Assembly: GCA_964373795.1 (NCBI GenBank)
Contig: CAYJVY010000001.1
Location: 171,341 to 188,712 of the forward strand
DNA: 17,372 nucleotides
Source: an uncultured archaeon
GTDB lineage: Archaea > Iainarchaeota > Iainarchaeia > Iainarchaeales > DATDZZ01
Reading direction: 5' to 3'
The notes beneath the pieces are model-generated. The model had not been told where the DNA came from. It worked only from the letters and a program-made list of their open reading frames with translations, and did no database searches. The translations under genes and the position numbers were made by a program. The stretch's first letter is position 1, and every line of letters begins with the position of its first letter. Positions 892-17,298 of the stretch are shown here, piece by piece.

Positions 892-2844
892 ATGGCTACA
901 GGAGAATTTGCTGCAACCCAGCTTGAAAAAAAGAGAAAAAAGTGGAGATGGAAAGAAAAAGTATTCAAGAGACGAATGAAGGGCTGGAACATTAAATTTG
1001 ATTTACTTGAAGGATCTCCTCAAGGAAGAGGAATTGTAATAGAAAAAAGAGGAGTTGAAGCTAGACAGCCAAATTCCGGAATACGTAAATGTGTTTCACC
1101 AGATACAAAAGTAACTTTATTTGATGGATGTTATACCTCGATGAAAGATTTAAAAGGGGTTTGGGATCAAGCAACAGTTTCTTCCATGAGTTTGAATACT
1201 GGTTTTGTTGAACCATCAAAATTAGTTGATCATTTTTCTCTAGAAGAAAACGAAATTAAAAAATCTTATAAAATTAAAACAATGGAAACTGGAAGAGAAT
1301 TAATTGCTTCAAGTGACCATCCAATGTTTACTTTAAGAGGAAAAATTGATGTTAAAGACCTAAAAATTGGAGACAAAGTAATTGTATTTCCTTCAAATCC
1401 AATTGAATTAAAATTAGAAAACAAAACTGTTTTAACTGAAAAAGATTTAAGAAAAGTTTTTTTTAAAAATTCCCCTACTAAAAAAATTATTGAAGAGTTA
1501 AAAAGCAAGGAATTGCTTTCTTTAAAATTAAATAATTTGAAAACATCAAAACTTGCAAGACTTGTAGGACACTTGTTTGGCAATGGTTGTTTAAGTTATG
1601 GAAAAGCCGGAACTATATTTTCAGGAAAAATTGTGATATCTGGGAAGCAAGAAGAAATAAAAGAAGTTGAAAAAGATTTACAAGATTTAGGGTTTAAAGT
1701 TTCTCCTTTGCAAAAAATGTATAGAGAACGCATAATTGAAACATCTAATGGAAAAAGAAAAATTAAAGGAACAAGTTATAGTAAAAGTGTTTCATCTATT
1801 TCTTTATTTTATTTGTTTAAAGCTTTAGGAGTTCCAGTTGGAGACAAGGCTTCAACAGAGTACACAGTTCCTAAATGGATTAAAAAAGCTCCTTTATGGG
1901 TTAAAGAAGAGTTTTTGGCAGCTTATTTTGGAAGTGAGTTAGAAAAACCAAGATTAAAAAATAAAACTTTCCAAAACCTTGCATTAAATGTAAATAAAAC
2001 AGAAGACAAAGTTGGATCTGGAATTAAATTTTTAAATGATATAAAAATACTTTTGAAAAAATTTGGCGTTAAAGCTTCTGAACCTATTAAGAAATTTTGT
2101 TGTATTAGAAAAGATGGGACAAAAACCTATAGAACACAACTTTTCATTAAATCAAATCATACTAATTTATTGAATTTATTTGGAAAAATAGGTTACAAAT
2201 ATTCTCCTGAAAGAGCAATTCTAGCTAGACATGCATTTCAGTATTTAACAATTAGAAAACAAAAATTTGGTGAATATAAAAAAGCATTTGAAGAATTTAA
2301 GAAATTAAGAAGAGAAGGATTATCAATTTCAAAGATTGAAAAAGCTTTACATGTAAAAGGTTTTACGTTTATTAAAAAAGGTTTAATTAATTATTGGGTT
2401 TCAAGAGGAGTTAAAAATATTGATAAATTAGGCATAACTGTTGAAACAGAGTCCTTTAATGATTGGAGAAAAAATGCTTCTAAAAATCTTAAGGATGGTT
2501 TAGTTTGGGAAACAATTAATGAAATAAAAGAAGAACCAGTAAAGGAGTTAATGGATATAACTACTGAAAGCTCAAACCATAATTTTTTTGCTAATGGTTT
2601 TTTAACTGGGAACTGTGTTAGAGTTCAATTAATTAAAAACGGAAAACAATTAACTGCTTTAGCTCCATACGACGGAGCAATTAAATTCATTGACGAACAC
2701 GACGAAGTATTAGTTGAAGGTTTAGGAGGCGCGCAAGGTGGGCCAAAAGGAGATTTATGGGGCGTGAAATACAGAGTAACTCACGTAAACGGAATTGCTT
2801 TAGAAATGCTTAGAACAGGTAAAAAAGAAAAGAGTAAGAGGTAA
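892..2844 (+). CDS. rps12: 30S ribosomal protein S12 (uS12) precursor containing a 508-aa intein
   Basis: The N-extein ends ...[28 protein letters not shown]. The C-extein is [39 protein letters not shown]...[28 protein letters not shown]. Joined, they give a contiguous 142-aa archaeal/eukaryotic-type uS12. Confidence 0.92.
1090..2613 (+). mobile_element. Intein (Hint domain plus LAGLIDADG homing-endonuclease domain) inserted in rps12
   Basis: Starts with Cys codon TGT 1090-1092 ([13 protein letters not shown], block A). Block B is [11 protein letters not shown] (His codon 1318-1320). LAGLIDADG-like motif 1 is [14 protein letters not shown] (1552-1593) and motif 2 is [10 protein letters not shown] (1912-1941). 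Blocks F/G are [23 protein letters not shown], ending with Asn codon 2611-2613, followed by +1 Cys (TGT 2614-2616). Confidence 0.9.
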
Positions 2845-3535: not shown

Positions 3536-3563
3536 ATTAATATTGTTTTGTAGTGACTTTGTA

Positions 3564-3848
3564 ATGGAAATTTTTTGGACAAGCCATGCACAACAGAGAT
3601 TTATTGAAAGAGCATTAATTTATGGTTTTTCAAAAGCAGATATTGATTACCTTGCTTTAAAACAATTGGTGAGAATTAATAAAGGTTTTGATGAAAAATA
3701 TAAGACAAAAAAATTTGAAACAATTGGTTTGGCTGGAAAAGTTTTCCTTACAATTCAAAAAGCAGAAGACTCTAAAAAAATAATAATTATTACTTTGTGG
3801 GAGTCAAATAAGAAAGAGGTTGAATTATGGCTATCAAAACAAAAATGA
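3564..3848 (+). CDS. Small DUF4258-like protein (putative toxin of a type II TA-like pair)
   Basis: The N-terminal FWTSHAQQRFIERAL (HAxxRxxxR) and the C-terminal beta-strand KKIIIITLWES match the pattern I associate with the DUF4258 family. Its stop TGA (3846-3848) overlaps the downstream gene. I start at ATG 3564; the tracked ORF begins at TTG 3543. Confidence 0.55.
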   Translation: MEIFWTSHAQQRFIERALIYGFSKADIDYLALKQLVRINKGFDEKYKTKKFETIGLAGKVFLTIQKAEDSKKIIIITLWESNKKEVELWLSKQK

Positions 3849-4165
3849 AGTGTCCTGTTTGTGGAGGAGAAGCTATTCTATCAAAACAGAATTTGAAACT
3901 TTTCAGGGGGGCAATATCTTTAAAAGATAACTATGTGTATGTTTGCAAAAACTGTAATGAAAAATTTGCAACAGGAGAAATGACTGGAAAAGCATTGAAT
4001 CAAGCAAAGCAGTATTTCAAGTTTAATAGAAAATTAATTTCTACTGGCGGGAGTATTGCAATAACTCTTCCATCGGATTTAAGTGACTATTACAAACTAA
4101 AAAAAGGCGAACAAGTCCAAATAATCCCTCAATCAAAAAAAGAAATGAAAATAGTTATTTTGTGA
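3827..4165 (+). CDS. YgiT/MqsA-type zinc-ribbon protein fused to an AbrB/SpoVT-like domain (putative antitoxin)
   Basis: MKCPVCGGEAILSKQNLKLFRG...YVYVCKNCNEKFATGEM is the CxxC...CxxC YgiT-type zinc finger pattern. The C-terminal GGSIAITLPSDLSDYYKLKKGEQVQIIP looks like an AbrB/SpoVT swapped-hairpin motif. GAGGT at 3816-3820 precedes ATG 3827. The alternative ATG 3845 forms an ATGA overlap with the upstream stop. Confidence 0.6.
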   Translation: MAIKTKMKCPVCGGEAILSKQNLKLFRGAISLKDNYVYVCKNCNEKFATGEMTGKALNQAKQYFKFNRKLISTGGSIAITLPSDLSDYYKLKKGEQVQIIPQSKKEMKIVIL

Positions 4166-6636: not shown

Positions 6637-7386
6637 CTATATTGCAATTATTTCTATTGGGTTTCCTCTGTCCCAAAAATCTCCAACAGGATTTAGATAT
6701 TCTTTTTCTGTTGCACTTACAAATTCTGTTTTTGGAATTCTTCTCCAAGAAATTTTAGTAAAACCTGCTTTTGTTAAATAATCAATAGTTGATTTTGTTG
6801 ATGAGCCCCATTCAACTACTCTTAGAACTCCGTTTTTCAAAAGCTTTCTTTCTCTCATTCTTCTCAGATCTTTTACAAGCTGTTCTTCTGCTTGTCTTCC
6901 AGCAGTTTTTATTAATGCTCTTTCAAAGTCACCCACAGTTGCCCCGGTATTTCTCAAGTGTTGCACTGCTTTGTCCCTTTTTTTCAGACTTCTACGAATT
7001 TCTTTTTCTATTTCTTCTACTAATTCTTCAAGGTAATTATGAATAAATATTCCTGCATTTATGAAACCAAATTTTCTTGGATCTTTAAGCCAAGCTTTAA
7101 AACCAGTGTAAGATAAATGCGCTCCAGGAATTTCTCTCCTATTTAAATCAGGGTGTTCTACTCCATGAATTCTTGCTCTTGGATTTAATTCCCCTGCATG
7201 TTTTATCCATTCTCCGCTAGCAAAACCCAAATCAACTATTCTATTTTGACTAGAAATAGCTTGTCTTACAAATGCTGCAGTATGCCTTTTAGGCAAATGC
7301 AATTTCCTTGGTTGTCTTGCATGCATTAAATAGTTGTGTTTTCCAGAATTTAAATCTCTTAGCTTTTTTCTTTTCCAAAAACACAA
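6637..7386 (-). CDS. Hypothetical protein, possibly Rossmann-fold methyltransferase-like
   Basis: IVDLGFASGEWIKH resembles SAM-binding motif I of FtsJ/RrmJ-like methyltransferases (VVDLGAAPGGW). I could not identify the K-D-K-E catalytic residues. The tracked start is TTG (7386); an ATG alternative at 7326 gives MHARQPRK.... Opposite strand to the translation operon. Confidence 0.3.
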   Translation of the reverse strand: MCFWKRKKLRDLNSGKHNYLMHARQPRKLHLPKRHTAAFVRQAISSQNRIVDLGFASGEWIKHAGELNPRARIHGVEHPDLNRREIPGAHLSYTGFKAWLKDPRKFGFINAGIFIHNYLEELVEEIEKEIRRSLKKRDKAVQHLRNTGATVGDFERALIKTAGRQAEEQLVKDLRRMRERKLLKNGVLRVVEWGSSTKSTIDYLTKAGFTKISWRRIPKTEFVSATEKEYLNPVGDFWDRGNPIEIIAI

Positions 7387-7394
7387 GTTTTAAA

Positions 7395-7421
7395 TATGTG
7401 GTTGCACATAAGTATTATGTG
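7395..7421. promoter_or_regulatory. Operator-like array TATGTG-N4-CACATA-N5-TATGTG in the divergent intergenic region upstream of the RHH/PIN pair
   Basis: TATGTG at 7395-7400, CACATA at 7405-7410 (reverse complement), TATGTG at 7416-7421. The second pair extends to 7 bp: CACATAA 7405-7411 and TTATGTG 7415-7421. A TATA-like TTTAAATA lies at 7389-7396. The antitoxin-like ATG is at 7429. Confidence 0.4.
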
Positions 7422-7428
7422 ATAATTT

Positions 7429-7671
7429 ATGCCTAATCTTACTCTTTCAATAACTGAGGAAACTAAAAAAATGATGGATAAGCACCCAGAAATTAGTTGG
7501 TCTAATGTAGTGCGTGTTATAATTGAACAGAAGCTCCGCGATTTTGAAGAAGCGGAAAGGCTTGCTTCCAAAAGCAAAATAACCGAAAAAGAATTTGAAA
7601 AGTTTATTTCAAAGGTGAATAAAGAAACAGCATTGCATGCGAAGAGGCTTCTTAATGAAAGTCACAGTTGA
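7429..7671 (+). CDS. Small antitoxin-like protein (possible ribbon-helix-helix, VapB-like)
   Basis: 80 aa. The N-terminal LSITEETKKMMDKHPEISWSNVVRVIIEQKL fits a strand-helix-helix pattern. It overlaps the downstream PIN gene by 17 nt. Confidence 0.5.
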   Translation: MPNLTLSITEETKKMMDKHPEISWSNVVRVIIEQKLRDFEEAERLASKSKITEKEFEKFISKVNKETALHAKRLLNESHS

Positions 7672-8065
7672 TGCAAATATTCTCTTTTCTGCTGTCTTGA
7701 AGCCTGGTTCTACACGAAGAATTTGGTTTAATCTTGATTTTAAATTATATGCTCCAACTTTTATTCTTACAGAATTCAAAAAGCACAGGCAATATCTATT
7801 CGAAAAAAGCAGGTTAAGTGAAGAGGAGTTTACAAATGTTGCAGGGAAAATTTTTTCCCAAACACATTTTATGGAAGATAATGAGCTGACTCCTTTTGTG
7901 CCTGCAGCAGCATCGCTTTTACAGGATCCCTTAGATTGGCTCTATCTTGCATGTGCGTTAAAAGAGGACACAGTAATCTGGAGCAATGATTTGGGATTCA
8001 AAAAACAAAATCGAATAAAGGTTTACTCAACAGAAGAAATGTTAAAAGAATTTGGTTTGCTTTAA
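7655..8065 (+). CDS. PIN-domain protein (VapC-like putative toxin ribonuclease)
   Basis: MKVTVDANILFSAVL... carries the first PIN acidic residue. Further acidic positions lie in LTEFKKH, DPLDWLYLACAL and VIWSNDLGF, the usual four-acidic PIN layout. I start at ATG 7655; the tracked ORF starts at 7637. Confidence 0.7.
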   Translation: MKVTVDANILFSAVLKPGSTRRIWFNLDFKLYAPTFILTEFKKHRQYLFEKSRLSEEEFTNVAGKIFSQTHFMEDNELTPFVPAAASLLQDPLDWLYLACALKEDTVIWSNDLGFKKQNRIKVYSTEEMLKEFGLL

Positions 8066-10163: not shown

Positions 10164-10811
10164 ATGTTTCCTATACTTAATCTGAAAATTGAAAATCCTT
10201 TCATTAAATCTGCTTTACTTGGATTGATTGCAGGAATTCTTTTAGAATTTTTTTTAATTCTTTTCTCTGTATTAATTTCATTTGTATTTTTCAGTTTTTT
10301 TGGAGCAACTTCTTTCAATAGTTCTTCAAGTCTTTTTCTTATAGCTTTTTATATTATTAGTACTTTTTTAGTTATTTTTATTAGATTCTTTTTTGCTTTT
10401 TTAGTTGGCTTTGCTTCTTCTTATTTTTTGAAATCTTTTCCTCAATTGAAAAGAATTTTATTTGCAGGAATTGCAGGAATAACTAATGCAGTTGGAGCCT
10501 TTATTCTTGACATTATATTAATTATCATAGGTCTCTTGCTTTTTTTTATTATTTCAGCGTTTTCATCTTTTAGTAGTGGTGGAATGGGTTTACAGTTATT
10601 TTTTATGCAAGCTTTTTTATCATTATTAGGATTAGTATTTTACTTTTTTTTATTATTAATTTCTTTAATGATTGGAATTTTTTTAGGAGCATTACTTGGT
10701 TCTTTAGGAGGACTTGTTTCAATAATTGTTTTTCCTTCCCAGCTTAAAGAAACAGCTTCAAATATTTCTGTTAAAAGCTTTGTTGTAGAAAGATCTTTAA
10801 AGAAAAAGTGA
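10164..10811 (+). CDS. Polytopic membrane protein (about 5-6 TM segments), function unknown
   Basis: 215 aa, extremely rich in Phe/Leu/Ile/Ser, with repeated hydrophobic segments. It lies directly upstream of the alpha-2-macroglobulin-like gene on the same strand. Its stop TGA (10809-10811) overlaps GTG 10808 of the long ORF. Confidence 0.55.
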   Translation: MFPILNLKIENPFIKSALLGLIAGILLEFFLILFSVLISFVFFSFFGATSFNSSSSLFLIAFYIISTFLVIFIRFFFAFLVGFASSYFLKSFPQLKRILFAGIAGITNAVGAFILDIILIIIGLLLFFIISAFSSFSSGGMGLQLFFMQAFLSLLGLVFYFFLLLISLMIGIFLGALLGSLGGLVSIIVFPSQLKETASNISVKSFVVERSLKKK

Positions 10812-10842
10812 TTAGGTTTTTTCCTAATCATTCCTTAAGGTA

Positions 10843-10850
10843 TTTAAATA
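10843..10850 (+). promoter_or_regulatory. TATA-like TTTAAATA about 24 nt upstream of ATG 10871 (possible leaderless promoter for the A2M-like gene)
   Basis: TTTAAATA at 10843-10850 and ATG at 10871. The spacing fits an archaeal TATA box to a transcription start at or near the start codon. TATA-like strings are frequent in AT-rich DNA, so support is weak. Confidence 0.25.
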
Positions 10851-10870
10851 CTTTAATTCCTATTTATTGC

Positions 10871-13800
10871 ATGAAGTTTGCAAAACTAGTCATGCTTTTC
10901 TTCTTGTTTTCTTTTTTTTCTTCATTTGTTTCAGCTAATGGCATTTCTAACAGTAGTTATTTTTATTTGCAAATTGATTCCTCTGTTTTACCTGGCAAAC
11001 CAATTGATTTATCTTTTTGCGGAAATGCAAAGCTTGCAAGGCTTGAAATATTTAAATTAAATCCTTTAGATGCTCCTTTAGAAAAATATTTAGATAAATT
11101 AGAGGTTGAAGCACTTTTATTAAAATCTGAAAAAATTCGTTCACTTGATTTGCTTATTCAAGGAACAGATTATTGTAAAAAACAAGTACTTGAACCATTA
11201 ACTTCTGGATATTATTATTTCAAAGCATTTGAAGTAGGAATTCCAGTAGTTGATAGCTTGCTTGCAGAATATAATTTTGTTAATGTTTCATCCCTTGGAT
11301 TTATAGCAAAGCAATCTGATTCTAAAACTGCTTTTTATGTTTTTGACTTGGTTTCAGGAAAACCTTTACAAGGAGCTGAAGTTTTTTCTTTTAAAGAAGC
11401 ATTTAAGGATGCGAAATCAATTGGTTTAACTAACGAGCTTGGCTTGCTTGAAATTGATAAGGGAGAAGAAATTCAAAACGTTTTAGCTTCCTTGCAAGGA
11501 AATAATGCTTTTACTCGAACTTATTATTATGCTAGTTCTTATGATAAATTCCAAGTTTATTCTTTTACTGATCGCCCTATTTACAGGCCAAACCAAAAAG
11601 TTTTCTTTAAATCCATTGCATGGCAGAACTTGAATGGATTGAAATCTTTTTACTCTAATTCTTCAATTCAAGTTGAAATTTCTGATTCAAAAGGAAATTC
11701 TGTTTTCAAACAGTCTTTTACTTCAAATGAATTTGGAGCTATTTCAGGAGAATTTGTTTTAGGTGACGAGCCTTCTTTAGGAAATTATTCTTTAAATGTT
11801 TTAATTAACGATCAAGCTTTTTATTCTCAAGGATTTGAAGTTCAAGAATACCGAAAACCCGAATACAAGGTTTCCTTAACTCCTAGTAAAAAGCAATTTC
11901 TTAAAGGAGACAAAATTGAATTAAAGGTTTTAACTGAATACTTTTTTGGAAGCCCTGTTCCAAATGCAGATTTAGTTTTTGAAGTGCAAAAAGATTCTTC
12001 TTATTTTTCTCCTTGTTGGGGTTATTATAAATGTTTTTATGCTGAAGAATTTATTTTGCCTCCAAGGTATTTTAGAGGACAAACAGTTTTTTCAGGGCAA
12101 TTAAAAACTGATTTACAAGGAGAAGCAATTGTTTCCTTTGATTCAAATTCTTTAGAGGAAACAGATGTTACTTATACTGTAACAGTTAAAGCATTTGATG
12201 AATCTAGGAGAGAGGCAAGCGCTTCAACTCAAGTAAAAGTTAATTCGGCTTTATTCAAATTACTTGGTTTAACAAATAAATATTCTTATTCAGTTGGAGA
12301 AGAAATTAAGGTAAAAATTAAATCAATTGATAACGATAATTCTCCAGTTAATGCAAAAATTGATGTAAATGTTTCTAGAGGAGAATGGGATGCAAATTAC
12401 TCTGTTTACACAATTGAATCAATTAAATTTGACTCAGTTGAATCAAAAGAAGGAGTAGCAGATTATTCTTTCACTGTTTCTAAAGGAGGAAGTTATTCAA
12501 TTGAGTTAACCTCTAAAGATGAAAAAGGAAATCCAGTGAAATATAAATTAAATGTTTATGTTTATGAAGCTGGAAGATTTTTTGATAAATTTGATTCTTT
12601 AGAGATTTCATTGGATAAAGATGCGTATTCTCAAAACGATGTAGCTGTTTTAACAATTAATTCTCCTGTAAAAGAGTTTGTTGCATTAGTTTCAATTGAA
12701 GGAAAAAAATTATTTTATTTAAAGCCAACTTATTCTGAAACTAATTCAAAGCAATTGCATTTACAGTTAACTCCTGAAATGACTTTAAATGCATTTGTAA
12801 ATGTTTCAATTGTTAAAGACAATAAAATGTATTCAGCTGTAAAAAGAATTTTAATTCCCCCTGCAAATAAAAACTTGAATGTAGAAATTACTCCTCAAAA
12901 AGATTTTTTTAACCCCAGAGAAAAAGTTCAATTCAGAGTTAAATTAACTGATGAAGAAGGCAAACCAGTTAAAGGAGAGCTTTCACTTGGATTAGTTGAT
13001 GAATCAATTTATTCATTGAAAGAAGATTCAAGTGAAGACATTTTTAAATTCTTTTACTCTCCTGAAAGAAATTCTGTTTACACTAGTTCTTCTGTTCAAG
13101 CATTTTATTATCCAAGAGGAATAGAAGGTGAAATAATGACTGAATCAGGAATGCCTTTATTGGGTATTGCAGCTCCCAGAATGGAGAAAAGTGTTGACAG
13201 TGTTAGAAGAGAGTTTGCTGCTACAGAAATTAGAAATATTTTTGCTGACACTGCTTTTTGGAATTCATCAGTTAAAACAAATGCTGAAGGAGAAGCATTA
13301 GTTGAAGTTGACTTGCCTGATAATTTGACTACTTGGAGGGCAACAGTTAAAGCACTTGGAACTGAAATGCAGGTAGGACAAAACACTGATAAAATTGTTT
13401 CAAGAAAAAAAGTTATTGCTCGTTTAATTACTCCTCGCTTTTTAGTGCAAGGAGATGAATTAATTATTTCAGGAATTGTTCACAATTTCTTGCCTGAACA
13501 ACAAGAATTTTTAGTTCAATTAGATTCAAATGATTTAGAATTCCTTTCATCTAATGAAAAACTTGTTTCAATTGCTTCAAATGCTTCTCAAAGAATTGAT
13601 TTCACTGTAAAAGCTTCAAAGTGTTGTTCTGCAAAGCTTGCTTTAAAATCTCTTGGCTTAATTGAATCAGATGCAATGGAGTTAACTCTTCCAGTATTGC
13701 CTCATGGAGTAAAGCAAACAAAATATTTTTCAGGCGAACTTAAAGGAAATGAATTAGTTCAAGAAATTTTATTCCCTGAAAAAACAATTGCAGGAGCTGA

Positions 13801-15796
13801 TTCAGTTTTGATTTCCTTAAATCCATCTATTGCTGCTTCAATGCTTGATTCTTTAGATTATTTAACTGGTTATCCTTATGGATGTGTAGAGCAAACAATG
13901 TCAAAGTTTTTGCCAAACTTAATAGTTGATCAAGCTTTAAAGAAATTAAATTTATCCAAACCTGAGTTGCAAAAAGATTTGCCTGACCAAGTAAGTAAGG
14001 GATTGCAAAGATTGTATGACTTTCAGCATGGAGATGGCGGTTGGGGTTGGTGGAAAGATGATCAAACAAATAATTACATGACTGCATATGTTGTATATGG
14101 TTTGAGTCTTGCAGAACAATCAGGTTTTAATGTTGATAAAAGCGTTTTGCAGAGAGGAGTAAATAAATTAGAGCAATTGTTTGCAGAAGAAACAAATCAA
14201 AACATTAAGGCATTCATGTCTTATGCTCTTTCACTGCAAGGAATTAATAGATTTGAAGGAATTAAAAAAGAAGAGCTTTCCTCTTATGGAAAAGCTGTTT
14301 ATGCTTTAGCTTTATGGAATGAAAAATCTCCAGAGGCAACTAATAAGCCTGCTGAAAGAAAACAATTAGCTCAAGACTTAGTGAAAGAACTTGATTTGAA
14401 TGGTTCTTGTACTTCACTTGAATGTTCTTGGACTGGGGAAGGCTGGAGACAACATTATTCTTCAAACGATGTTGAAGCAACAGCCTATGTATTAAAAGCA
14501 TTAATTGCAATTAATCCTTTATCTGAAAACATTCCTAAAACAATTAATTTTTTAGTTAGAAACAAAAAAGGAGGAAGATGGGTTTCCACTTCAGATACAG
14601 CTGCAGCTATTTTTGCTTTAACTGATTACTTAGTTTTAACTCAAGAACTAAAGCCAAATTATTCTCTTCAAGTTTCATTTAACAATGATTTGCTTTCCTC
14701 TAATCAAATTAATTCAAGCAATGTTTTAAACAAGTTTGAGTTTTCTCCAAAAGTTCTTCAAAAAAATAATTCAATTAAGGTTTCAAAGCAAGGCCAAGGA
14801 AAATTATATTATGCAATTACTCAGCAATTCTTTGAATTAAAGGATTTAATTGAAGCAGAATCAAATGGAATTAAAATTACTCGTTCAATGCCTTTAGAAA
14901 TTGATTTAGGACAAGAGTTTGATGTAAACCTTTTAGTTGAATTAAATGCAGATTATGAGTACTTGATTTTAGAAGACTTTCTTCCAGCAGGAGTAGAATT
15001 AGTTGATGAAAAAAAATCAGATGACTATTATTATTGGGATTATAAAAGGTTTGAAAGAAGAGATGAAAAAGTTGTATTCTTTTTTTCTTGGCTTGGAAAA
15101 GGACAACATAGTTTTTCTTACAGAGTTAGAGCAGAAGTTCCAGGAACATTTAAAGTACTGCCAACTCAGTCTTCTTTAATGTATGCTCCAGAAATAAATG
15201 GAAGATCTTCTGAAAACACTTTAAAAATAACTGAAAATTATAGATTGTTTATTCCAAAAATAGATGTTAATGCACAAGAAATAATAATTATTTTAGATGA
15301 AGAAACTCTTTCGGGAGAAAAAATTAATGGATCAATTGATTTAATTGTTTCAGATTCAAACGGAGTAACATTGTCTTCCAAATCAATTGATTTAAATCTT
15401 TCTCAGCCAAGAAAATCCGAGCAAACAAGTATTTCTTTAAATAAAAAATTAAGTGAAGGACAATACACTGTTTCATTAAAGGCTTATACAGATAAAGGAA
15501 ACTTTGCTTCGACAAAGGCCTTCCAATTAGGAAGAATTACAGTAGTTGAAGAAATTCCTGAAACCATTACTAGTTTAAGTAAGGAAAAAATTGTTTTCGA
15601 TAAATCAAGTGTTCCATTTAAACCTGATTCAACTGTAATTCCTTCTGCAAAAATTACTCCAATTCCTGATAAACCTAAAACTCCTGGAATTGATTTATTT
15701 AAAATTATAGGAGGAGCATTAATTATTCTTTCACTAATTGCAATAATTTACATTGTTTTTCTACGCAAAGGAGCTCAAATTGAAGCAGAAGACTAA
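10871..15796 (+). CDS. Alpha-2-macroglobulin family protein with an intact thioester motif, signal peptide and C-terminal membrane anchor
   Basis: Signal-peptide-like MKFAKLVMLFFLFSFFSSFVSA (10871-10936). MG-domain motifs are DRPIYRPNQKVFFKS and VQEYRKPEYKVSL. The A2M-domain motif is FADTAFWNSSVKTNAEGEALVEVDLPDNLTTWRATVKA. The thioester motif is GYPYGCVEQTMSKFLP (CVEQ = 13883-13894). The thioester-domain helices include DFQHGDGGWGWW and GGRWVSTSDTAAAIFALTDY. The C-terminal TM segment is IIGGALIILSLIAIIYIVFL (15704-15763), followed by RKG. I start at ATG 10871 rather than the tracked GTG 10808. Confidence 0.88.
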   Translation: MKFAKLVMLFFLFSFFSSFVSANGISNSSYFYLQIDSSVLPGKPIDLSFCGNAKLARLEIFKLNPLDAPLEKYLDKLEVEALLLKSEKIRSLDLLIQGTDYCKKQVLEPLTSGYYYFKAFEVGIPVVDSLLAEYNFVNVSSLGFIAKQSDSKTAFYVFDLVSGKPLQGAEVFSFKEAFKDAKSIGLTNELGLLEIDKGEEIQNVLASLQGNNAFTRTYYYASSYDKFQVYSFTDRPIYRPNQKVFFKSIAWQNLNGLKSFYSNSSIQVEISDSKGNSVFKQSFTSNEFGAISGEFVLGDEPSLGNYSLNVLINDQAFYSQGFEVQEYRKPEYKVSLTPSKKQFLKGDKIELKVLTEYFFGSPVPNADLVFEVQKDSSYFSPCWGYYKCFYAEEFILPPRYFRGQTVFSGQLKTDLQGEAIVSFDSNSLEETDVTYTVTVKAFDESRREASASTQVKVNSALFKLLGLTNKYSYSVGEEIKVKIKSIDNDNSPVNAKIDVNVSRGEWDANYSVYTIESIKFDSVESKEGVADYSFTVSKGGSYSIELTSKDEKGNPVKYKLNVYVYEAGRFFDKFDSLEISLDKDAYSQNDVAVLTINSPVKEFVALVSIEGKKLFYLKPTYSETNSKQLHLQLTPEMTLNAFVNVSIVKDNKMYSAVKRILIPPANKNLNVEITPQKDFFNPREKVQFRVKLTDEEGKPVKGELSLGLVDESIYSLKEDSSEDIFKFFYSPERNSVYTSSSVQAFYYPRGIEGEIMTESGMPLLGIAAPRMEKSVDSVRREFAATEIRNIFADTAFWNSSVKTNAEGEALVEVDLPDNLTTWRATVKALGTEMQVGQNTDKIVSRKKVIARLITPRFLVQGDELIISGIVHNFLPEQQEFLVQLDSNDLEFLSSNEKLVSIASNASQRIDFTVKASKCCSAKLALKSLGLIESDAMELTLPVLPHGVKQTKYFSGELKGNELVQEILFPEKTIAGADSVLISLNPSIAASMLDSLDYLTGYPYGCVEQTMSKFLPNLIVDQALKKLNLSKPELQKDLPDQVSKGLQRLYDFQHGDGGWGWWKDDQTNNYMTAYVVYGLSLAEQSGFNVDKSVLQRGVNKLEQLFAEETNQNIKAFMSYALSLQGINRFEGIKKEELSSYGKAVYALALWNEKSPEATNKPAERKQLAQDLVKELDLNGSCTSLECSWTGEGWRQHYSSNDVEATAYVLKALIAINPLSENIPKTINFLVRNKKGGRWVSTSDTAAAIFALTDYLVLTQELKPNYSLQVSFNNDLLSSNQINSSNVLNKFEFSPKVLQKNNSIKVSKQGQGKLYYAITQQFFELKDLIEAESNGIKITRSMPLEIDLGQEFDVNLLVELNADYEYLILEDFLPAGVELVDEKKSDDYYYWDYKRFERRDEKVVFFFSWLGKGQHSFSYRVRAEVPGTFKVLPTQSSLMYAPEINGRSSENTLKITENYRLFIPKIDVNAQEIIIILDEETLSGEKINGSIDLIVSDSNGVTLSSKSIDLNLSQPRKSEQTSISLNKKLSEGQYTVSLKAYTDKGNFASTKAFQLGRITVVEEIPETITSLSKEKIVFDKSSVPFKPDSTVIPSAKITPIPDKPKTPGIDLFKIIGGALIILSLIAIIYIVFLRKGAQIEAED

Positions 15797-15835
15797 CTCA
15801 ATTGTAATTAAATTTTTTTCCTTCCCTGTTTTACT

Positions 15836-16273
15836 ATGCCTTTCAAGTTTTTAGAGGAAGTTGCTTTAGCAGACATTGCTTTTAAAGCAACTGGAAAGGA
15901 TTTAATTGAATTACTTGAATCTAGTGCTTTAGCTGTTTTCACTGTAATGGTTGACTTGAAAACAGTTAAACCAAAAATTGAGAAAACTTTCACAGTTAAC
16001 TTACAAGCAGATAATTTTGAAAAACTTTTATTTGATTTTTTATCAGAAATTGTTTTCTTGAAGGACACTGAAGGAATGGTTTTTAAGGAAATAAAAGTTA
16101 AATGGTTTCCAGCAAAACGCGGAGCAATAGTTAAAGCAATTTTAAAAGGAGATTTAGTTAACCCTAAAACTCAAATTCTTGGACAAGACGTGAAAGCAGT
16201 TACAATGCATAATTTTAAAGTCGAGAAAACTTCTTTAAAAAAATGGAAAGCATTTGTAATCCTGGATATTTAG
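15836..16273 (+). CDS. Archease (RtcB tRNA-splicing ligase cofactor family)
   Basis: 145 aa. The N-terminal FKFLEEVALADIAFKATGKDLIELLESSALAVFTVM and the C-terminal VKAVTMHNFKVEK...WKAFVILDI match the conserved archease termini. Confidence 0.8.
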   Translation: MPFKFLEEVALADIAFKATGKDLIELLESSALAVFTVMVDLKTVKPKIEKTFTVNLQADNFEKLLFDFLSEIVFLKDTEGMVFKEIKVKWFPAKRGAIVKAILKGDLVNPKTQILGQDVKAVTMHNFKVEKTSLKKWKAFVILDI

Positions 16274-17298
16274 TTTTTTATTTTCTCTAATTTTTGTTGT
16301 CTTGCTTTTTCTCTGAAACCAATTGCTTCTCTAAACCTTGGAATTCCTTTAGGCCAAATCCTAATAACTATATTAGGAATTCCACTACTTCTTTCTTTTC
16401 CAATTGAATGTTCAACTCCTGCTTCACTCAAATAAAGTGATACGTGTTTCACTAACTCTGGATTTGTTGAAGGCAGTTCTATACACGTAGTTTTTTTTGG
16501 CCCTGAAAAGTGTATTACTCCATGTGAATCAAATAATCCTTTCAAGAAATCAATTCTGTTTTTTTGAGTTGAAAGAATTTTTACAGGAATTCTAGTTAAA
16601 TACTCTGTTTCTCTGTTTAAAATTTGAGTTAAATTTCTTGCAATAAACGCATGTGTTTCAAGTCCTTTTGTTTCAACAAATTTCACTTCTTTTCCTGCAA
16701 TATTTGCTAATCTTGTTCTAAATTCTTTTCCAAAACCTTTATCTTTTGCTGCAAGATTTAATCCCATGTTACCAACAACTTTTTTTTGTTGAGGACTTCT
16801 TCTAGTTTCTTGTCCAAACATTGCTCCAATAATATATGCATAATCTGCTTCTTTTTCTGGAGTGAACTCAATTTTTTTTCTCATTCTTTCATATGAATCT
16901 GCTCTTTTAAGTGAAACATTTTTTGGAAGCCTTTCATGAAAAAGCCATAAACGAACAGAGGTTTTCTCCACTCCAAATCGTTTTGCAATATGAGTTAAAT
17001 TAGGAGTTTGTCCTAATTCAATATATTGATTGTATGCTTCAACTACTTGTTTAAGGGTTTCAAATTCTTTTAATTGTTGTTCTAGTTTTCTACGCATTTC
17101 TTCTGGTTTTACTCCAAGCCAAGAAAATCTTTCAAGTAATCTTTCCCTTGCTTCAACTAGTGAAACTCTTTGCCCTGAAGGCAAAAAAATAATTGATTCT
17201 TTTCTATCTTTTGATGGAAGCAAGGCTTCAAGGTATGAAATTCTTTTCTTCCAAATAGTATTTCTTGTATTAGCTGGCTTTTTTCTTGCTCTAATCAT
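16270..17298 (-). CDS. Free-standing HTH + double-motif LAGLIDADG (homing-endonuclease-like) protein
   Basis: HTH-like LTHIAKRFGVEKTSVRLWL (about 16945-17001). LAGLIDADG-like motif 1 is YAYIIGAMFGQE (16807-16842) and motif 2 is DFLKGLFDSHG (16519-16551), about 97 aa apart as in single-chain enzymes. The C-terminal IRIWPKGIPRFREAIGFREKARQQKL is typical of the fold. There are no Hint/intein blocks and no flanking extein. The 3' end overlaps the archease 3' end by 4 nt (convergent). Confidence 0.65.
   Translation of the reverse strand: MIRARKKPANTRNTIWKKRISYLEALLPSKDRKESIIFLPSGQRVSLVEARERLLERFSWLGVKPEEMRRKLEQQLKEFETLKQVVEAYNQYIELGQTPNLTHIAKRFGVEKTSVRLWLFHERLPKNVSLKRADSYERMRKKIEFTPEKEADYAYIIGAMFGQETRRSPQQKKVVGNMGLNLAAKDKGFGKEFRTRLANIAGKEVKFVETKGLETHAFIARNLTQILNRETEYLTRIPVKILSTQKNRIDFLKGLFDSHGVIHFSGPKKTTCIELPSTNPELVKHVSLYLSEAGVEHSIGKERSSGIPNIVIRIWPKGIPRFREAIGFREKARQQKLEKIKN

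Follow-up and report, generated by a model that had tools for sequence, protein, structure and literature searches.

A thioester-containing alpha-2-macroglobulin with a predicted C-terminal membrane anchor on a Diapherotrites-like archaeal contig

A stretch of 17,372 nucleotides (nt) from an uncultured archaeon (assembly GCA_964373795.1, contig CAYJVY010000001.1, positions 171,341 to 188,712; here called the window, with all coordinates counted from its first letter) contains, downstream of a cluster of translation genes, an open reading frame (ORF) for a protein of 1641 amino acids (aa) that resembles the alpha-2-macroglobulins (A2Ms). The question raised by this locus is whether a thioester-bearing A2M is encoded by an archaeon of this kind and, if so, how it might be held at the cell surface and what it might do there. 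A sequence-only reading had proposed a thioester-containing A2M homologue, and this proposal was borne out by five Pfam domains above threshold and by the alignment of its CVEQ motif with known thioesters; the coordinates and elements listed with it were all checked and all proved correct. Judged by its sequence, the gene codes for a bacterial-type (Type I, thioester-bearing) A2M that is now resident in a Diapherotrites-like DPANN archaeon. It is not a new class of system, as archaeal A2Ms, and the proposal of an A2M defence in ultra-small episymbionts, have already been published. The truly distinctive feature of this A2M is its C-terminal extension with a transmembrane (TM) anchor, and this combination of an extra domain, a stalk and a C-terminal TM helix is new and so far confined to Diapherotrites.

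Domain architecture, thioester site and bait region

The ORF runs on the forward strand from a GTG codon at 10808 to 15796 (1662 aa), which is the form annotated by NCBI, and from an ATG codon at 10871 it codes for 1641 aa plus the stop codon. The ATG was preferred as the start because the predicted signal peptide is then N-terminal and also because a TATA-like element, TATTTAAATA, is found ~25 nt upstream. This element suggests that the A2M gene may possess its own promoter and be transcribed as a leaderless mRNA.

Pfam matches to MG2, A2M_BRD, A2M, TED_complement and bMG10 each exceeded the gathering threshold, with E-values from 8e-14 to 8e-25 (8.8e-24 for MG2), and matches to bMG3/MG3 were weak. 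Sequence searches of the PDB returned human A2M, TEP1, CD109, E. coli YfhM/ECAM, Salmonella A2M (Sa-A2M) and C3/C4/C5, and NCBIfam returned for the whole protein sub-threshold noise only (SCO2321 family, squalene cyclase) and no equivalog. Full-length E-values against homologues reached 1e-263, so these A2M features cannot be attributed to chance. Two AlphaFold models were used, one of aa 1–600 (m69b0eaccb503; mean predicted local distance difference test score, pLDDT, 83) and one of aa 575–1641 (pLDDT 80), and the domain order of the superfamily (MG array, BRD, MG7, CUB, TED, C-terminal MG) was recovered by Pfam, AlphaFold and Foldseek alike. The best Foldseek matches of the C-terminal model were native ECAM (5a42), A2ML1, native CD109 and Salmonella A2M (E ~1e-42), with higher TM-scores for native than for protease-activated conformers.

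The five N-terminal MG domains span aa ~30–125, 133–216 (bMG3-like), 227–324 (MG2), 326–442 (MG3-like, with a disordered Cys-containing loop at 379–401) and 448–565. In a family alignment of 120 sequences, comprising the query and its 119 closest homologues, the motifs RPIYRPNQKVFF (aa 235–246) and VQEYRKPEYKV (aa 324–334) lie in the most conserved MG2/MG3 blocks. The MG7/CUB segment holds a conserved FADTAFW...LPDNLTTWRA block in which the D, T and W residues are invariant. Hydropathy identified two hydrophobic segments only, at aa 1–25 and aa 1610–1631. The first of these coincides with the signal peptide, MKFAKLVMLFFLFSFFSSFVSA followed by NG (also written MKFAK-LVMLFFLFSFFSSFV-SA followed by NG), which contains no lipobox and no Cys. 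Enrichment of N-x-S/T sequons was considered as a mark of archaeal surface adaptation and rejected, as the 17 observed did not differ significantly from the 12.6 +/- 3.1 expected.

The thioester motif, claimed earlier to be an intact GCVEQ, does lie within a true complement-type TED. CVEQ (aa 1005–1008; nt 13883–13894) aligns with CGEQ of human A2M and TEP1 and with CLEQ of E. coli YfhM/ECAM, and 120/120 family members keep C1005, E1007 and Q1008. In bacterial A2Ms the thioester is protected by a pocket formed by residues such as Tyr1183/Tyr1185 in ECAM and Met1625/Tyr1626 in Sa-A2M, the roles of ECAM Tyr1183, Tyr1185, Cys1187 and Gln1190 have been described, and in eukaryotic members all four pocket residues are situated on the C-terminal MG domain (PMC4498604). 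By alignment, all four residues of the bacterial-type pocket are present in the query, as Y1001 (kept in 111/120), Y1003 (118/120) and the pair M1437 and Y1438 (118/120), which lies in bMG10/CTMG and corresponds to the CTMG half of the pocket. The TED aligns end to end with that of ECAM, and both are without the ~30-residue insert seen in TEP1. An insert of the TEP1 type carries, in C3 and C4, the catalytic His for reaction with hydroxyl groups, and because it is missing here the thioester would be expected to react with amines (lysine).

A bait-like linker had been placed at 13106–13240 (aa 746–790), and this assignment was supported by both the alignment and the model. Within the alignment, no internal stretch is less conserved or richer in indels than residues 741–790, where occupancy is 0.61–0.66 and identity to the query drops as low as 0.07 between strongly conserved flanking blocks. 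The AlphaFold model has a single long internal stretch of disorder, aa 740–780 (pLDDT <50). Basic, acidic, aromatic and aliphatic residues all occur in the loop, a mixture that would be compatible with cleavage by several protease classes.

C-terminal anchor and origin of the gene

An extra C-terminal Ig-like region, a Pro-rich linker and a single TM anchor had been noticed in the sequence-only reading and are all present, although their rarity was not recognised there. The extension (aa 1461–1641) had no counterpart in any of the 119 homologues, and a hydrophobic C-terminus was found in none of the 59 homologues examined. Basic residues open the short tail that follows the TM helix, in agreement with the positive-inside rule, so the predicted topology is type I, with an extracellular ectodomain.

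An exhaustive phmmer search with aa 1455–1641 against 1.84e9 representative proteins returned one real relative, P0241 (MDO8627301.1), a 324-aa C-terminal fragment encoded on a 1.8-kb contig (L087) of the Candidatus (Ca.) Diapherotrites metagenome-assembled genome (MAG) GCA_030650135.1. P0241 consists of bMG10 followed by the same extra domain, stalk and TM-RKG sequence and is 35% identical to the query over 300 aa; only these C-terminal 324 aa are assembled, and the thioester and bait parts lie outside the fragment. Conservation of the TM sequence between the two proteins is unusually high (FKI-GG...Y..F-RKG), and the gene after P0241 codes for an archease that is 54% identical to the archease of the window. 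Since P0241 shares the extension, the TM-RKG sequence and the following archease, the anchored form is conserved in at least two Diapherotrites genomes and was inherited vertically. The archease is a synteny marker common to both anchored A2Ms, without a functional link to the A2M gene.

The best full-length homologue, P0002 ('Methanosarcinales archaeon' HID27303.1), is 41% identical to the query and ends at the end of its contig, and all other homologues are at most 36% identical and bacterial wherever named. A search of GTDB species representatives with the A2M profile gave at least 582 relatives, the best 80 of which were all bacterial and at most 33% identical. By neighbour-joining, the query, P0002 and a further homologue, P0015, were grouped in 50/50 bootstraps. 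A phylogeny had been proposed earlier as a check for horizontal gene transfer (HGT); in the neighbour-joining tree the three-member clade sits among bacterial sequences and the deeper nodes are weak. The G+C content at third codon positions (GC3) of the A2M gene (0.152) equals that of the ribosomal and elongation factor genes, and its relative synonymous codon usage (RSCU) correlates with that of the remaining window at r=0.97. As the clade is nested among bacteria and codon usage is fully ameliorated, these results suggest an old transfer from bacteria to archaea followed by gain of the C-terminal module, with direction and number of events drawn from distance trees.

P0015 deserves separate mention. 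At its locus (L084, 2535–9946) the protein is divided between a 2068-aa ORF and a 405-aa ORF that overlaps it and contains bMG10, an arrangement that may reflect a frameshift or a genuine split. The continuation (L084, 8729–9946) was considered as a homologue of the extra domain of the query and rejected, because BLASTP matched bMG10 only; this downstream fragment has a different, non-homologous C-terminal extension without a TM segment. P0015 also stands out for its unusual abundance of Cys (60) and of N-x-S/T sequons (61). Another CxEQ-like motif, CEEQ, occurs at aa 473, and the locus is flanked by giant beta-helix, Asp-rich repeat proteins.

Table 1. Coordinates of the A2M gene, its protein features and the adjoining archease gene in the window
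Feature	Coordinates	Strand	Evidence and remarks
TATA-box-like element	10841..10850	+	~25 nt 5' of ATG; direct sequence reading
A2M-family ORF	10871..15796	+	1641 aa; Pfam, homologue search
Predicted Sec-type signal peptide, aa 1–22	10871..10936	+	Cleavage predicted between VSA and NG; sequence, hydropathy, model helix aa 2–20
Five N-terminal MG beta-sandwich domains	10958..12565	+	Pfam, AlphaFold
A2M bait-region domain (MG6/BRD scaffold), aa 577–716	12599..13018	+	Pfam A2M_BRD 8.4e-14; pLDDT 84–97
Bait loop, aa ~740–790	13088..13240	+	Alignment occupancy/identity; pLDDT
A2M/MG7 (aa 794–884) and first CUB-like beta segment (aa ~885–985)	13250..13825	+	Pfam A2M 1.5e-17; pLDDT >90
TED, alpha/alpha-toroid, aa ~987–1257	13829..14641	+	Pfam TED_complement 7.8e-25; 11 helices in model
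Thioester site Y1001-P-Y1003-G-C1005-V-E-Q1008	13871..13894	+	120-sequence alignment; ECAM equivalents in PMC4498604
Second CUB-like segment and C-terminal MG (bMG10/CTMG, Pfam aa 1334–1441), to aa ~1455	14657..15235	+	Pfam bMG10 1.6e-23
Extra beta-sandwich (Ig-like) domain, lineage-specific, aa ~1463–1560	15257..15550	+	Beta strands modelled, pLDDT 50–75
Pro/Lys/Ser/Thr-rich disordered stalk (~50 aa), aa ~1561–1609	15551..15697	+	Sequence; pLDDT <40
Predicted single C-terminal TM helix, aa 1610–1631 (FKIIGGALIILSLIAIIYIVFL)	15698..15763	+	Hydropathy peak 2.9; helix in model
Predicted cytoplasmic tail RKGAQIEAED, aa 1632–1641	15764..15793	+	Sequence; RKG kept in P0241
Archease	15836..16273	+	Pfam Archease 1.3e-32; directly 3' of A2M

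Proposed function and competing explanations

The native form of ECAM/YfhM (structures 5a42, 4rtd and 4ziq) is the best structural match of the query, yet identity in the structural alignment is ~18% and the query has ~1.5 fewer N-terminal domains, with an offset of ~158 aa. Both ECAM and Sa-A2M (4u48) share with the query the domain order MG array-BRD/bait-MG7-CUB-TED-bMG10, the CxEQ motif, the pocket of two TED tyrosines and a CTMG Met-Tyr pair, and a TED length without the TEP1-type insert. The query differs from ECAM in its ordinary signal peptide in place of a lipobox, in the lack of the PBP1c neighbour of YfhM-type loci, in a tether (Ig-like domain, stalk and TM helix) at the C-terminus, the opposite end from that of ECAM, and in its archaeal host, which is without an outer-membrane-bounded periplasm. 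The missing lipobox and the missing PBP1c had been put forward earlier as special features, and the absences themselves stood, but they are not peculiar to this protein. A lipobox-like N-terminus was found in ~15/119 of the closest homologues and was absent in ~104/119, and a GT51 motif occurred within ~6 kb in 2/80 related bacterial loci by a rough regular-expression test; no GT51 motif was found in the window and no PBP domain among the neighbours. The lipobox therefore defines the YfhM subgroup and not the wider subfamily.

This wider, non-proteobacterial A2M subfamily (Planctomycetota, Armatimonadota, Acidobacteriota, Chloroflexota and others, together with P0002 and P0015) has the same Pfam architecture, 28–41% identity to the query across 75–87% of its length and an invariant CxEQ. 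Its members, like the query, mostly have non-lipoprotein signal peptides and no PBP1c linkage, and they differ in the C-terminal extension described above. Homologues labelled 'YfaS' by JGI carry a generic COG name. Bacterial Type II A2Ms (MagD/YfaS), as defined in PMC5764988, have no CxEQ and are encoded in a six-gene mag operon, whereas the query has CxEQ and no mag-like neighbours; by structure and motif it falls within the alpha-macroglobulin superfamily and bacterial Type I, and neither within Type II nor among the Gram-positive thioester adhesins.

Archaeal A2Ms had been called uncommon and uncharacterised, but they are not unknown: Makarova et al. (2021) had already described 27 homologues with CxEQ from 24 genomes of archaea and had inferred, for some of them, HGT from bacteria, and the main text of that paper names Halobacteria and Methanomicrobia (PMC8416519). 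As described there, these proteins resemble the query in their archaeal hosts, signal peptides and TED with CxEQ, and some of them (Methanomicrobia, e.g. WP_015053894.1) are of bacterial type and attributed to HGT. Many of them are situated in conflict or toxin-like neighbourhoods, in contrast to the housekeeping neighbourhood of the query, and a C-terminal TM anchor is not reported in these descriptions, on which the comparison was based. Large membrane A2M-domain proteins are also encoded by the ultra-small bacterium Vampirococcus lugosii (Vamp_6_203 and Vamp_19_245); these are longer than the query (1895–2368 aa), and such membrane A2Ms of Candidate Phyla Radiation episymbionts were proposed to protect against host proteases (PMC8080830, PMC9793634).

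Human CD109 (8s3o, 9fx3) is a monomeric thioester alpha-macroglobulin that is bound to the cell surface via its C-terminal (MG8) end, as predicted for the query. CD109 is an experimentally verified C-terminally anchored monomeric inhibitor that needs covalent conjugation after bait cleavage, and a conjugation step is needed for inhibition by monomeric alpha-macroglobulins in general (PMC12927315). CD109 ranked third in Foldseek; its identity to the query is only 16–17%, so this likeness is best taken as functional analogy and not orthology. CD109 has a glycosylphosphatidylinositol (GPI) anchor on its furin-cleaved MG8 and is shed once activated, while the query has a TM helix with an RKG tail and no such processing is evident in it. 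Archaea are not known to have furin-type processing.

Based on these comparisons, the most likely function of the protein, and in our judgement a probable one, is to trap proteases covalently, as a surface-tethered monomer in the manner of ECAM and CD109; a protease trap had also been favoured in the sequence-only reading and, by homology, would still be the best interpretation. The steps outlined here follow from homology with ECAM, Sa-A2M and CD109. The Sec signal peptide would export the A2M and the C-terminal TM helix would keep it on the cytoplasmic membrane, where the flexible stalk of ~50 residues and the Ig-like spacer would hold the A2M body of ~1,440 residues outside the cell. A foreign or stray endopeptidase, which may be environmental, host-derived or the organism's own, would cut the exposed bait loop (aa ~740–790), and the cut would free the TED from the C-terminal MG and take apart the Tyr1001/Tyr1003/Met1437/Tyr1438 pocket. 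The exposed Cys1005-Gln1008 thioester could then acylate a lysine of the protease, which would be blocked from large substrates in the manner of a monomeric 'snap-trap'. With its anchor at the C-terminus, the query would keep both the TED-bearing fragment and the captured protease covalently linked to the cell, unlike N-terminally lipidated ECAM. The domain order, the intact motif, the disordered bait, the topology signals, the archaeal context and the rarity of the anchor are direct observations; thioester formation, protease capture and the physiological role are inferred by homology.

Two observations at the locus weigh against such a trap. No protease, protease-related or cell-wall gene was found near the A2M gene in the window, so that no specific target is suggested, and A2M is absent at this locus in the closest relatives (~72% identical EF-2), which indicates that it is not essential to the lineage. 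If the protein is nevertheless a protease trap, it would be the first DPANN A2M or complement-type thioester trap, as far as we have found, and the first prokaryotic A2M trap tethered by its C-terminus; in the literature searched, an absence that need not hold for the literature at large, neither a DPANN A2M nor a prokaryotic A2M with a TM anchor was reported. Its contrast with N-lipidated ECAM and with GPI-anchored, shed CD109 would provide a test of anchor topology against alpha-macroglobulin function. It would also be a candidate envelope-defence (or attachment) factor for archaea with an almost unknown surface biology.

The same thioester could instead serve attachment, as a covalent adhesin or opsonin-like 'harpoon' that binds the archaeon to a host or partner cell in the manner of TEP or C3, where a protease on the host surface might activate the thioester by cutting the bait and the C-terminal anchor would make the bond one from cell to cell. 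TEP1 and C3 tag surfaces with this fold, the anchor would leave the TED fragment membrane-bound after the bait is cut, other giant surface proteins (Laminin_G, PKD/Big_7) are found at the same locus in relatives, and many DPANN archaea are episymbionts (PMC6349945, PMC5905446). We consider this function unlikely, however, because the sequence, the thioester pocket and the CTMG all correspond to bacterial protease inhibitors, the TED has no TEP1-type insertion and a Pfam scan returned no anaphylatoxin or other complement-specific domain. A comparison with Gram-positive thioester adhesins had been drawn earlier and amounts to analogy only: the TIE/TED domain of these adhesins is a different thioester domain from the complement-type helical toroid of the query, which matched no thioester-domain Pfam family other than TED_complement at E<=0.1. 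An episymbiotic life, as suggested before, is not established for the lineage, and some Diapherotrites, which are predicted protein degraders, are thought to be free-living (PMC6349945). A narrower version, in which a host protease fires the thioester of a DPANN symbiont and thereby welds the symbiont membrane to a host envelope protein, is in our view decidedly unlikely; if true, it would constitute a protease-triggered covalent cell-cell tether unlike any described archaeal adhesion mechanism, and the conserved TM helix might couple attachment to a partner membrane protein such as the product of the upstream Phe-rich ORF. It is also conceivable, though highly doubtful, that the protein has a structural role in which the thioester is unformed or irrelevant and the A2M body is a spacer or envelope component. 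Type II bacterial A2Ms do function without a thioester (PMC5764988), methylamine cleavage of the thioester brings no major conformational change in bacterial A2Ms (PMC4498604), and the gene lies among housekeeping genes without a functional partner. A mere scaffold is difficult to reconcile with the retention of CxEQ, the TED tyrosines, the CTMG Met-Tyr pair and a variable bait at a best identity of 41% and with ameliorated codon usage; that these residues were kept at such divergence points to purifying selection on the trap machinery.

Two further explanations concern the anchor and the contig, and not the fold. Archaeal surface proteins often bear tripartite C-terminal sorting signals, and the hydrophobic C-terminal segment could be one of these, cleaved by an archaeosortase-like or other step that leaves the protein lipid-attached, S-layer-attached or secreted; the conservation of the TM sequence between two members could then mean partner recognition. 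This is quite improbable, as neither PGF-CTERM, PEF-CTERM nor any other NCBIfam sorting-signal model matched the last 61 or 183 aa at E<=10, no PGF-like motif directly precedes the TM segment, and the acidic cytoplasmic tail, at 9–20 aa, exceeds the usual length of sortase-type tails. A bacterial contaminant or a chimeric contig might be suspected since, beyond the two clade partners, the nearest named homologues among the matches listed are bacterial, and since an independent Logan assembly (run ERR3478686; L001), which covers window positions 10608–17176 with 3/6569 nt different, starts at 10608 and so does not span the junction between rps10 and A2M. Tetranucleotide profiles of all window segments, however, correlate at 0.92–0.97 without a break, codon usage shows none either, and the A2M gene stands between archaeal genes, with rpS10/EF-1a upstream of it and archease downstream. 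EF-2 is 66–72% identical to proteins named Ca. Diapherotrites, the genes for the A2M protein, EF-2, EF-1a and archease are all on one NCBI contig of 188,712 bp, the order A2M-then-archease recurs in the second Diapherotrites MAG, and the nearest full-length homologue is labelled archaeal. Given the agreement of GC3, RSCU, tetranucleotides, the Logan assembly and the shared contig, the A2M gene is native to the archaeal contig, as the sequence-only reading had supposed, and contamination or chimerism is very unlikely, to the point of being scarcely credible.

Genomic neighbourhood

Upstream of the A2M gene lies an archaeal L30e-NusA-S12-S7-EF2-EF1a-S10 cluster, and an ORF for a 215-aa Phe/Leu-rich polytopic membrane protein without a Pfam match (10164–10811, forward strand) ends 60 nt 5' of the A2M start. 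In two loci of related DPANN genomes (L085, 13351–16638; L086, 12326–15334) the slot after EF-2 holds other secreted or surface proteins of ~1,000 aa (Laminin_G_3; PKD/Big_7), and the large envelope proteins encoded in the str-operon neighbourhood thus seem to vary within this lineage.

Inteins were seen in two translation genes of this group. The ribosomal protein S12 gene of the window (892–2844, forward strand; 650 aa) is split by an intein of ~500 aa (Pfam Intein_splicing, aa 75–572), positioned at PNSGIRK/C...TGN/ within the conserved PNSAxRK decoding-centre loop, and S12 is intein-free, at 143–145 aa, in relatives with ~72% identical EF-2. A full-text literature search for an intein in ribosomal protein S12 found no paper describing one. 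Among EF-2 homologues, many from Diapherotrites (e.g. P0136, P0147, P0153) are ~1,240 aa long and contain a LAGLIDADG-bearing intein, while the EF-2 of the window (734 aa) is intein-free. Intein turnover among the translation genes of these archaea is suggested by this contrast, as many Diapherotrites carry an intein in EF-2 and the window carries one in S12 instead.

Other insertions were found in and around the operon. Between rpS7 and EF-2 are two small overlapping ORFs on the forward strand, 3543–3848 (101 aa, no family match) and 3827–4165 (112 aa, with a Zn-ribbon and an AbrB/MazE-like C-terminus), which are absent from L085 and L086 and together resemble a toxin-antitoxin-like or mobile element inserted into the str operon. 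Between EF-2 and EF-1a, three ORFs occupy 6637–8065, namely an uncharacterised ORF of 249 aa on the reverse strand (6637–7386) and, at 7429–8065, an 80-aa ORF with a PIN-domain ORF in a VapBC-like arrangement; the GC3 of this pair (0.29–0.31, compared with ~0.15 in the remaining window) suggests its more recent arrival. Adjoining the archease gene is a 342-aa free-standing ORF (16270–17298, reverse strand) with a LAGLIDADG_3 homing-endonuclease domain, one more selfish element in a window where such elements are dense.

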